Virus record (IMG/VR): IMGVR_UViG_2778261069_000005
Span: 1 to 8,854 of that record
Length of the DNA: 8,854 nucleotides
Source of the DNA: a virus
Taxonomy: Duplodnaviria > Heunggongvirae > Uroviricota > Caudoviricetes
Direction: 5' to 3' (one strand)
Below, piece after piece: positions 1,691 through 2,461 of this stretch. The notes beneath the pieces are model-generated. The model was not told the origin of the DNA and searched no databases. It worked only from the letters and a program-made list of their open reading frames with translations. The position numbers and the translations under genes are program-made. Each line of letters begins with the position of its first letter. Positions within the stretch are counted from its first letter, which is position 1.

Positions 1691-1907
1691 TGTGATAGAG
1701 ATCATTATTCAATTCGATTGAGAAAAATCATCATAAGGTTTATATCCATTTATTAGATTTTATGTGTATAAATAGTTAAAAATGCACGATGTAGAGATAT
1801 TTGTGCTTAACATCAATTAATCATTGCTAAATCGTGCTTATTGTTCAGAAATCGCCCAAGTCATATTGAAAATCTGTTGGCGAACACCTATATAAGGAGT
1901 ATAGTTA

Positions 1908-2270
1908 GTGACCCAAAACGTATTGCCAATCAACAAGAGCTTGCATGACCGAGCTGTTGATGAATTTAATCGTCTGCATGGAACAATGATTGGCGAGATT
2001 AGTGCAATGCTGAAAACAGCTAAAGTAGCGCCATTGGTGGATCTTCGTAAGAAAGATCCTACCTTTTCGAACGTTGTCGCAGAATTACGGACATTCAGAG
2101 ACGTATGTAATGCTCTGCTCCCATACTTTCGTGTAGATAAGACCAGCGAAATCGCTGTCATCGATAAGTTACTTATACTGGCTAATGACCTGGCTCAAGC
2201 CATCGATGCTGACGATCCTGACGCATTGTGCGCAGCAATAGCAGCCCTTGATGTTGAGCCTTACATTTAA
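1908..2270 (+). CDS. Hypothetical protein, 120 aa, acidic and probably alpha-helical, GTG start; first gene of a moron downstream of cI
   Basis: ORF with Shine-Dalgarno AAGGAG 8 nt upstream of GTG at 1908. Preceded by a roughly 215-bp very AT-rich spacer. No similarity to lambda RexA or any protein I recognise. Confidence 0.6.
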   Translation: MTQNVLPINKSLHDRAVDEFNRLHGTMIGEISAMLKTAKVAPLVDLRKKDPTFSNVVAELRTFRDVCNALLPYFRVDKTSEIAVIDKLLILANDLAQAIDADDPDALCAAIAALDVEPYI

Positions 2271-2285
2271 ACGAGGGGAAAAAAA

Positions 2286-2414
2286 ATGACTAAAGCGTTT
2301 GACTATACTGCCGTTAGTAAGCTTTTGGCTGAAATGCGCGGATGTGTAGAGCGCGTTCAAAATCTACGCCGCGACTTTGAAGCTCACATCAATCATTCAC
2401 AAAAAGCGGCTTGA
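2286..2414 (+). CDS. Hypothetical small protein, 42 aa (MTKAFDYTAVSKLLAEMRGCVERVQNLRRDFEAHINHSQKAA)
   Basis: ATG at 2286, 15 nt after the stop of the 120-aa ORF, with a G-rich ribosome-binding site (GAGGGG) upstream. A strong terminator follows 20 nt downstream. Below the 60-aa cutoff of the supplied ORF track. Confidence 0.4.
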   Translation: MTKAFDYTAVSKLLAEMRGCVERVQNLRRDFEAHINHSQKAA

Positions 2415-2433
2415 TACTTAAGTTAGATGACAG

Positions 2434-2461
2434 AACCCGGCCTCAGCGCCGGGTTTTCTTT
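2434..2461 (+). terminator. Intrinsic terminator closing the cI-moron transcription unit
   Basis: AACCCGGC / GCCGGGTT stem (2434-2455) with a short loop, followed by TTTTCTTT. Confidence 0.7.

Follow-up and report, generated by a model that had tools for sequence, protein, structure and literature searches.

What do lambdoid prophages maintain in the slot between the cI repressor gene and OL/PL, the position that holds rexA and rexB in lambda? We addressed this question for an 8,854-nucleotide stretch of DNA (positions 1 to 8,854 of the viral record IMGVR_UViG_2778261069_000005, Caudoviricetes; hereafter the window), which covers a lambdoid prophage's immunity and early-left region in PL orientation. 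Directly downstream of cI it carries two small open reading frames (ORFs), here called ORF120 and ORF42 after the length of their products in amino acids (aa), which a first-pass annotation had singled out as a candidate moron. Comparison with related genomes demonstrates that the segment 1692-2433, comprising a leader and both genes, is a self-contained, horizontally mobile two-gene cargo of temperate phages. The cassette is prophage hotspot cargo, probably a toxin-antitoxin (TA)-like defence made of unrelated parts. Our leading reading, to which we assign a probability of about 0.4, is an antidote-controlled anti-phage module, in which ORF42 would be a labile restrainer of ORF120 and which virulent phages of the genus Sugarlandvirus would counter with a stable decoy.

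An exchange slot with exact borders

BLAST alignment of the window with the sister phages BP-4795 and AU5Stx1 revealed 95-96% identity over positions 128-1691, including the cI region, followed by a break and by renewed homology from 2434/2435; on the left side, homology ends at 1691/1693. These alignments define the swapped segment as 1692-2433 and point to an exact cargo exchange between conserved flanks, with the presence/absence pattern among related phages that is expected of a moron. The slot and its surroundings are organized as follows.

150-449, minus strand: cII
588-821, minus strand: cro
935-1639, plus strand: cI repressor, 234 aa (Peptidase_S24, E 3.8e-16; phrog_4), the upstream neighbour, context and not cargo
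1640-1691, plus strand: left junction of the slot, common to the sister phages, carrying a fossil cI C-terminus
1692-1907, plus strand: AT-rich cassette leader, 29% GC
1862-1919, plus strand: near-invariant promoter-like block, from alignments of leaders
1908-2270, plus strand: ORF120, acidic, predicted all-helical protein of 120 aa, GTG start
2286-2414, plus strand: ORF42, predicted single amphipathic helix of 42 aa, ATG start
2433-2463, plus strand: intrinsic terminator, 9-bp stem, 6-nucleotide (nt) loop, U-rich tract
2464-2876, plus strand: OL/PL region and N leader, the right-hand context of the slot, 85-86% identical to H-19B, BP-4795 and ST2-8624, in which OL1-OL3 are annotated
2877-3149, plus strand: N (PF25694)

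Leader, ORF120, ORF42 and terminator were thus located where the first-pass annotation had placed them, on the same strand as cI (935-1639) and upstream of OL/PL. The latter assignment follows from the stretch 2435-2700, which aligns with the annotated OL1-OL3 region of H-19B-type phages and lies ahead of N (2877-3149); a promoter-like site is present at 2658-2686. The terminator was also confirmed. Its GC-rich stem of 9 bp (2433-2441/2448-2456) encloses the 6-nt loop and is followed by TCTTTG, the 3' arm ending in TTT; the centroid energy is -16 kcal/mol (z = -2.26 relative to shuffled sequences), and 15 of 16 divergent homologous cassettes likewise end, behind the small ORF, in an intrinsic terminator made of a hairpin and a T-run. 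A simple consensus terminator scanner did not list the 2433-2463 hairpin. Because homology to the sister phages resumes at 2434, the terminator belongs to the common right flank and not to the inserted cargo; the terminator expected of a moron is present, though in this slot it is common to the backbone.

The sister phages carry different cargo between the same flanks. In BP-4795, the slot between cI and N is filled by ORF22-21-20 (L061:1651-2992), which match PD-Lambda-2_A (E 2.5e-42), PD-Lambda-2_B (E 3.8e-50) and PD-T4-9_C, ORF22 being a HigB-type toxin. In the deposited record, these ORFs are 'hypothetical' and bear no PD-Lambda-2 or PD-T4-9_C annotation. PD-Lambda-2 has been shown experimentally to be a TA-like abortive-infection system (Vassallo et al., 2022; bioRxiv 10.1101/2022.05.12.491691). 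The slot of AU5Stx1 contains a single 47-aa ORF. Given the flanks common to both phages and the validated PD-Lambda-2 in one of them, the comparison identifies the cI-PL slot as a real exchange hotspot at the rexAB position, able to carry defence systems, and the assignment of the cassette as a moron in such a hotspot is thereby supported. The leader (29% GC) stands apart in composition from the window as a whole (45.8%), but ORF120 (44.6%) and ORF42 (45.0%) do not differ from their neighbour cI (44.8%). In a Hafnia prophage (L004, 4400-4732), an additional 110-aa gene of unknown function lies between cI and the cassette leader, so the slot can hold stacked cargo.

The left junction retains a trace of an earlier exchange. 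Positions 1660-1690, past the stop codon that actually ends cI (1639), hold the remnant of a lambda-type cI C-terminus (QWPEETFG, stop). Three other records (L002, L010, L039) have this motif as the genuine end of cI, and in two (L012 and L004) it precedes the cassette; by this comparison, the fossil is the mark of an old junction left by an immunity swap. An anti-phage small RNA, svsR, is reported from the cI 3' end of the lambdoid prophage NC-SV (PMC12803456, 2026).

Two small proteins, predicted to be helical, under purifying selection

ORF120 begins with GTG at 1908, preceded at a distance of 8 nt by the Shine-Dalgarno (SD) sequence AAGGAG at 1894-1899. The protein is acidic (pI 4.87, net charge -5), as are all members of its family (pI 4.3-5.2). 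These features agree with the first description, to which we add that the SD lies inside the conserved promoter-like block of the leader. ORF42 starts with ATG at 2286, only 15 nt past the stop codon of ORF120, and has its own SD, GAGGGG, at 2273-2278, in line with the tight spacing noted before. Pairwise ratios of nonsynonymous to synonymous substitution rates (dN/dS) range from 0.05 to 0.13 for ORF120 and from 0.05 to 0.4 for ORF42, with synonymous sites near saturation in both cases. These ratios establish ORF120 and ORF42 as real genes under purifying selection.

AlphaFold2 (AF2) predicted ORF120 to be an up-down acidic helical bundle (helices 5-40, 43-47, 53-73, 79-101 and 104-115; predicted local distance difference test (pLDDT) 81.8) with a free five-residue C-terminal tail. 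The C-terminus is near-invariant in the family (...AIAALD(E/V)KPYI), and the conserved columns consist mostly of hydrophobic positions, joined by K39, P51 and the D-x-x-P-Y-I end; nothing looks catalytic. HEPN (Rx4-6H) and Fic/Doc motifs were considered and rejected, being absent from ORF120, with candidate His residues not conserved across the family. For ORF42, AF2 returned one amphipathic helix over residues 7-41 (pLDDT 93.7), which carries the motif (F/Y)D..V..LL.EM..C..RV..L. Neither protein contains a transmembrane (TM) segment, the maximum 19-aa hydropathy being 1.22 for ORF120 and 0.34 for ORF42.

Whereas the pI of ORF42 varies from 4.5 to 9.7 across the family, its C-terminus hardly changes: the tails of 30 distinct sequences read KAA in 23 cases, QAA in four, and LAA, KIA and KVA in one each. 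Recognized ClpX degrons end in ..LAA (ssrA) and ..KKAI (MuA). The K/Q-A-A end of ORF42 resembles such ClpX-type C-terminal degrons, a likeness that we take as a lead only. Arbitrium (AimR-AimP), in which a peptide precursor of ~40 aa with an N-terminal secretion signal is paired with a large TPR receptor, was dismissed as a model, as ORF42 has no hydrophobic N-terminal segment or signal sequence and ORF120 gave no TPR match. The classes of ClpX C-terminal degrons have been reviewed (PMC12723719).

The first-pass annotation had found no family for either protein. Searches with both proteins yielded no Pfam family at E up to 1, including no match to PF05321 or PF10757 (Hha and TomB/YbaJ) and none to helix-turn-helix, ribbon-helix-helix or AbrB DNA-binding domains; they yielded 0 families in PADLOC-DB 2.0 at E up to 10 and no relative in NCBIfam, among PDB sequences or among solved or viral folds. 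With ORF120, Foldseek reached a best E of 0.6 against PDB and 0.34 against BFVD, and these hits, like those of a PDB sequence-profile search, were generic or designed helical bundles only. Homology to a known toxin or antitoxin family was likewise absent for both proteins in Pfam, PADLOC, NCBIfam, PDB and Foldseek searches. The earlier statement needs one correction: ORF120 and ORF42 already belong to phrog_13858 and phrog_12503, respectively, both labelled 'unknown function'. None of the profile and structure searches pointed to ordinary structural or regulatory phage genes, and no paper was found for the protein accessions or PHROG identifiers.

A pair that is inherited together

An exhaustive profile search of 1.84 billion proteins defined the ORF120 family as 36 cluster representatives, all of similar length. 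The ORF42 profile, run against 5.8 billion proteins, recovered members of 42-45 aa, except for two truncated variants (37 and 30 aa) and a phage peptide described below; all bacterial ORF42 members that were looked up adjoin an ORF120 homologue. Together, the pair occurs in about 30 sequence variants in Enterobacterales and Vibrio. Among 5426 complete E. coli genomes, the cassette was found 101 times in 89 genomes, with both genes present every time at >=99% identity and no orphan, and a divergent family member, again paired after cI, was found in five further genomes. The cassette is also abundant in Klebsiella.

The arrangement itself is strictly maintained. We compared 16 distinct cassettes drawn from records of phages, genomes and metagenomes; each has an ORF120 homologue followed, after a gap of 12-37 nt, by a 42-45-aa ORF with an SD, and this order is kept in members whose large protein is only 37-40% identical. 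The 42-aa ORF, whose absence or disruption in relatives had been raised as a point to check, is present and intact down to 37% identity of the large protein. Morganella has the same two-gene arrangement, as does Vibrio cholerae (128 + 43 aa), where the cassette lies at the end of a P2-like Vibrio prophage. Among all phage records, the temperate Proteus phage Pm34 alone yielded ORF120, and there the gene has its partner.

The genomic context, by comparison, is variable. The cassette sits behind at least five different S24-type repressor alleles, and elsewhere it occupies a P22 immI-like position beside Arc and antirepressor genes (L043), lies beside an Arc-like gene and the tail-tip protein J (L013), at tail-fibre ends (L044, L008), beside an integrase (L053) or, on a chromosome, beside an N6-methylase and an IS1595 element (L055). 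At such sites away from the repressor, prophages typically carry accessory and defence cargo. A RefSeq 'plasmid' (NZ_CP148434.1; L059, 2162 bp) consists of the cassette and three small prophage ORFs; we dismissed it as a case of plasmid carriage, the record probably being an assembly fragment and not a replicon.

Recombination has also acted within the cassette. Synonymous divergence (dS) between the window and L012 is 1.19 in ORF120 and 0.14 in ORF42. In another E. coli prophage (L069:2118-2470, L070:1368-1718), the 5' 60% of ORF120 has been replaced by unrelated sequence in a natural recombinant, with loss of residues 1-72; its ORF42 is identical and its terminator intact.

A conserved promoter-like block in the leader

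The leader (1691-1907 when counted from the last common position, 217 nt) accompanies the two genes also where no cI lies upstream (L008, L013, L043, L044). The ~110 nt before the start codon can exceed the genes in conservation, the leader being 91% identical between L012 and L044 and 89% between L010 and L043, as against 55% and 53%, respectively, for ORF120 DNA. As leader types are thus common to ORF120 clades that are only ~50% identical, recombination at the conserved block is implied. The core of this conservation is the 58-nt block at 1862-1919, ATTGaAAA-N-TTGnnn-N-CCTATATAAGGAGTATAGTTA(G/A)TGACCCAAAA, which is near-invariant in 13 of 15 representatives and takes in two overlapping promoter-like sites, termed P-a and P-b, as well as the SD (1894-1899) and the ORF120 start codon (1908). 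It is not kept in Proteus/Morganella, Vibrio and the most distant members.

P-a (TTGaAA, 17 nt, TATATA) has its -35 element at 1866-1871 and its -10 element at 1889-1894, which places the predicted transcription start inside or just after the SD. A sigma-32 reading of P-a (TTGAAA, 14 nt, nCC(T/C)ATAT) would suit the consensus in spacing and in how the site varies, although the predicted start again falls inside or after the SD. In 12 of 14 leaders, P-b (TTGnnn, 16-17 nt, TATAGT/TATAAT/TATGAT; -35 at 1877-1882, -10 at 1900-1905) gives the best sigma-70 match. The TTG of the -35 and the A2 and T6 of the -10 element, exactly those positions that a promoter needs, are retained in the variants of P-b. 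Since the P-b -10 element ends 2 nt before the ORF120 start codon, the predicted transcript starts at or after the GTG and could express ORF42 only; such an ORF42-only transcript is our inference from the position of the site. L041 has a distance of 57 nt between the block and the downstream ATG, and P-b, here with a perfect TATAAT, would be well placed to drive both genes.

The conservation of P-a and P-b, together with retention of the leader in cI-free contexts, argues that the cassette likely has its own promoter in the leader. No terminator-like site was found on the plus strand between cI and ORF120, so read-through from PRM is also possible. The SD noted in the first-pass annotation lies inside the promoter-like block, and the cassette may be transcribed by PRM read-through, from P-a or from P-b. 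A structured RNA or riboswitch in the leader was considered and rejected, with no Rfam match and zero conserved pairs in RNAalifold.

A lone ORF42 homologue in virulent Klebsiella phages

A tblastn search of 50,697 phage records with ORF42 gave one weak type of match (E 0.1), present in 59 records, all of them from virulent T5-like Klebsiella phages (genus Sugarlandvirus). Preceded by an SD, the gene specifies a peptide of 33 aa (MKAFDAELVFSLLAEMEACVDRVRALRLSMFSS) and is situated beside an HNH endonuclease in a tRNA-rich accessory region; in Klebsiella phage vB_Kpn_B01 it is found at MT380195.1 26061-26162 (L062:1498-1599). We assessed the relationship with a profile built from 16 bacterial ORF42 sequences, leaving the phage peptide out. 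The peptide scored 41.3 bits, corresponding to E 6e-15 per sequence and ~3e-7 for a generous 5e7 six-frame ORFs, and in the first 50 kb of vB_Kpn_B01 it was the single match to the ORF42 profile (E 1.8e-11). The ORF120 profile found nothing in the same 50 kb (best E 3.3).

These profile scores identify the phage peptide as a genuine ORF42 homologue. It spans profile positions 3-28 and lacks the last third of the protein including the K-A-A end. Its similarity to several ORF42 clades is about equal (14-16 of 27 positions), which gives it a consensus-like appearance. The lone copy suggests an undescribed pair of defence and counter-defence; our literature search returned nothing linking Sugarlandvirus to such a system.

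A proposed antidote-controlled module and its alternatives

In the module that we favour, the cassette would be expressed in the lysogen through PRM read-through and/or promoters in its own leader. The two cytoplasmic proteins would associate through their helices, and in this complex the acidic ORF120 bundle would be held inactive by the 42-aa helix. ORF42 would be the unstable partner, with its K/Q-A-A end serving in the manner of a ClpX-type degron. Upon infection, shut-off of host expression or titration of ORF42 by the phage would release ORF120. Free ORF120 would not act as an enzyme but would use its invariant ...KPYI tail to bind a target and so block the growth of the phage. The outcome would be an exclusion or abortive-infection module under antidote control, which the T5-like Klebsiella phages could counter with their lone, tail-less ORF42 copy acting as a stable decoy antidote. 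The story in full, that is, a new two-protein anti-phage system whose effector binds via the ...KPYI tail and is defeated by a captured, degron-less, consensus-like copy of ORF42, is somewhat less probable. Restraint of ORF120 by ORF42 fits the natural recombinant, in which ORF120 is truncated and ORF42 kept. Weighing against this polarity is one metagenomic contig (n=1) with an intact ORF120 and a frameshifted ORF42; such cases are too few to decide.

The polarity could also be reversed, with ORF42 as an effector peptide acting on a host target and ORF120 as its acidic neutralizer, chaperone or regulator. For virulent phages, the lone peptide would then be a means of host takeover; the prophage would restrain ORF42 as an addiction or stress module. 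A large acidic gene followed by a small, often basic one is indeed the classical antitoxin-toxin order and charge pattern, the lone copy lies among small accessory genes of the T5-like tRNA region, where host-takeover genes are common, and the N-terminal two-thirds that it keeps are the best conserved part of ORF42. We nevertheless consider this arrangement unlikely, given that the charge of ORF42 is inconstant in the family, that the recombinant with truncated ORF120 and intact ORF42 should be harmful were ORF42 the toxin, and that a conserved promoter-like site favouring ORF42-only transcripts makes little sense for a toxin. A lysogenic-conversion regulator, in which the complex binds a host protein (a protease adaptor, sigma-factor regulator or nucleoid protein) and adjusts physiology for the lysogen, would agree with small soluble helical binders that have conserved terminal peptide motifs and no catalytic residues, with classic moron positions beside conversion genes such as an O-antigen acyltransferase, and with selection that is purifying and not diversifying. 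It leaves the lone truncated ORF42 of virulent Klebsiella phages unexplained, unless the same host factor is targeted, and the absence of Pfam matches to Hha, TomB/YbaJ or other regulator families likewise speaks for an improbable explanation.

Location mostly directly behind S24-type repressors, with no terminator after cI and possible co-transcription from PRM, might instead suggest that the cassette modulates the switch of its prophage, for instance by tuning RecA-dependent cI cleavage or induction. We judge this very unlikely: cI alleles of at least five unrelated kinds accompany the cassette, it is also found far from any repressor (tail-fibre ends, the neighbourhood of an integrase, a chromosomal island), and sister phages that have this cI lack it. 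As for chance ORFs or decaying remnants without function, the shortness of the ORFs and the lack of family annotation anywhere could be cited in their favour. This reading is refuted by the low dN/dS at saturated synonymous change, by the conservation of the pair down to 37% identity across orders of Gammaproteobacteria and by the confident AF2 models.

Relation to known systems

Compared with known systems, the cassette combines familiar architecture with unfamiliar components. It shares with lambda rexA-rexB the slot directly downstream of cI, on the same strand and upstream of OL/PL, and the organization as two-gene cargo readable from PRM in the lysogen. In contrast to rexA-rexB, to which it shows no sequence or profile similarity (Pfam, PHROG, NCBIfam, PADLOC), its proteins are far smaller (120 and 42 aa), and neither has a TM segment, whereas RexB is a multi-pass membrane protein. 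In rnlAB and lsoAB, the toxin gene comes first and the short, unstable antitoxin second, and the small phage T4 protein Dmd replaces the antitoxin. By analogy, the logic proposed here, loss of an antitoxin leading to defence and a virulent phage supplying a substitute, would be the same. The parts differ, as RnlA and LsoA are large RNases and Dmd is no RnlB homologue, whereas ORF120 has no nuclease features and the phage peptide is a homologue of ORF42.

PD-Lambda-2 of BP-4795 (ORF22-20) fills this very slot, being a small multi-gene, TA-like, prophage-borne system between the same flanks. However, its HigB-like toxin, Xre-peptidase and third component are unrelated to ORF120 and ORF42, and function is proven for PD-Lambda-2 only. 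With type II TA systems in general, the cassette has in common a small, adjacent, co-oriented gene pair that is always co-inherited, with gaps of 12-37 nt in all variants, but neither homology to their families nor a DNA-binding antitoxin. In E. coli hicAB, one promoter is so placed that its transcript yields the downstream antidote protein only (PMC11594946), and the predicted P-b site would likewise give the downstream protein only. HicA and HicB are unrelated to the cassette proteins; HicB is a DNA-binding repressor of P2, and in the cassette proteins no DNA-binding domain was detected. BstA, a prophage abortive-infection protein beside the repressor in BTP1-like phages, is described as a single protein with a cognate self-immunity element (PMC8585504). 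BstA resembles the cassette as prophage defence cargo beside the repressor gene of lambdoid/P22-like phages; it differs in being a single protein with a self-immunity element and has no homology to the cassette, which gave no PADLOC match.

Further features of the window

Downstream of N, the gene order is a 149-aa protein, a DUF2528 protein, cIII with a thermoregulator RNA, gam, bet and exo. The 149-aa ORF (3208-3657), directly 3' of N, belongs to phrog_3054 (unknown function) and has no Pfam, NCBIfam or PADLOC match. Two hydrophobic stretches were recognized by eye, and the product may be a membrane protein encoded in the early-left operon; lambdoid phages carry sieB-type genes in this region. 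The lambda cIII thermoregulator RNA element (RF01804, 88.5 bits) maps to 4281-4339 and overlaps the cIII start. The window ends in a perfect 124-nt inverted repeat (4-127 and 8731-8854), corresponding to the 3' end of a transposase gene of the IS3 insertion sequence (IS) family and its terminal repeat; either the prophage segment lies between inverted IS copies, or the contig ends at a repeat that was collapsed in assembly.

Implications

With its junctions exactly located, the cI-PL slot of H-19B-type prophages is a defined hotspot in which further cargo can be sought. Domain-based finders miss the cassette, as seen from the empty PADLOC, Pfam and NCBIfam results, and yet it is common in clinically relevant E. 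coli, including Shiga toxin-producing E. coli of serogroups O103 and O111, and in Klebsiella. If it is a defence module, it adds a system of two very small, non-enzymatic helical proteins to those carried by prophages, together with a matching candidate anti-defence gene that is identifiable from sequence. The Sugarlandvirus homologue would then represent a ready-made anti-defence gene in phages that are used in Klebsiella phage-therapy collections, and it could predict their host range on lysogens carrying the cassette.

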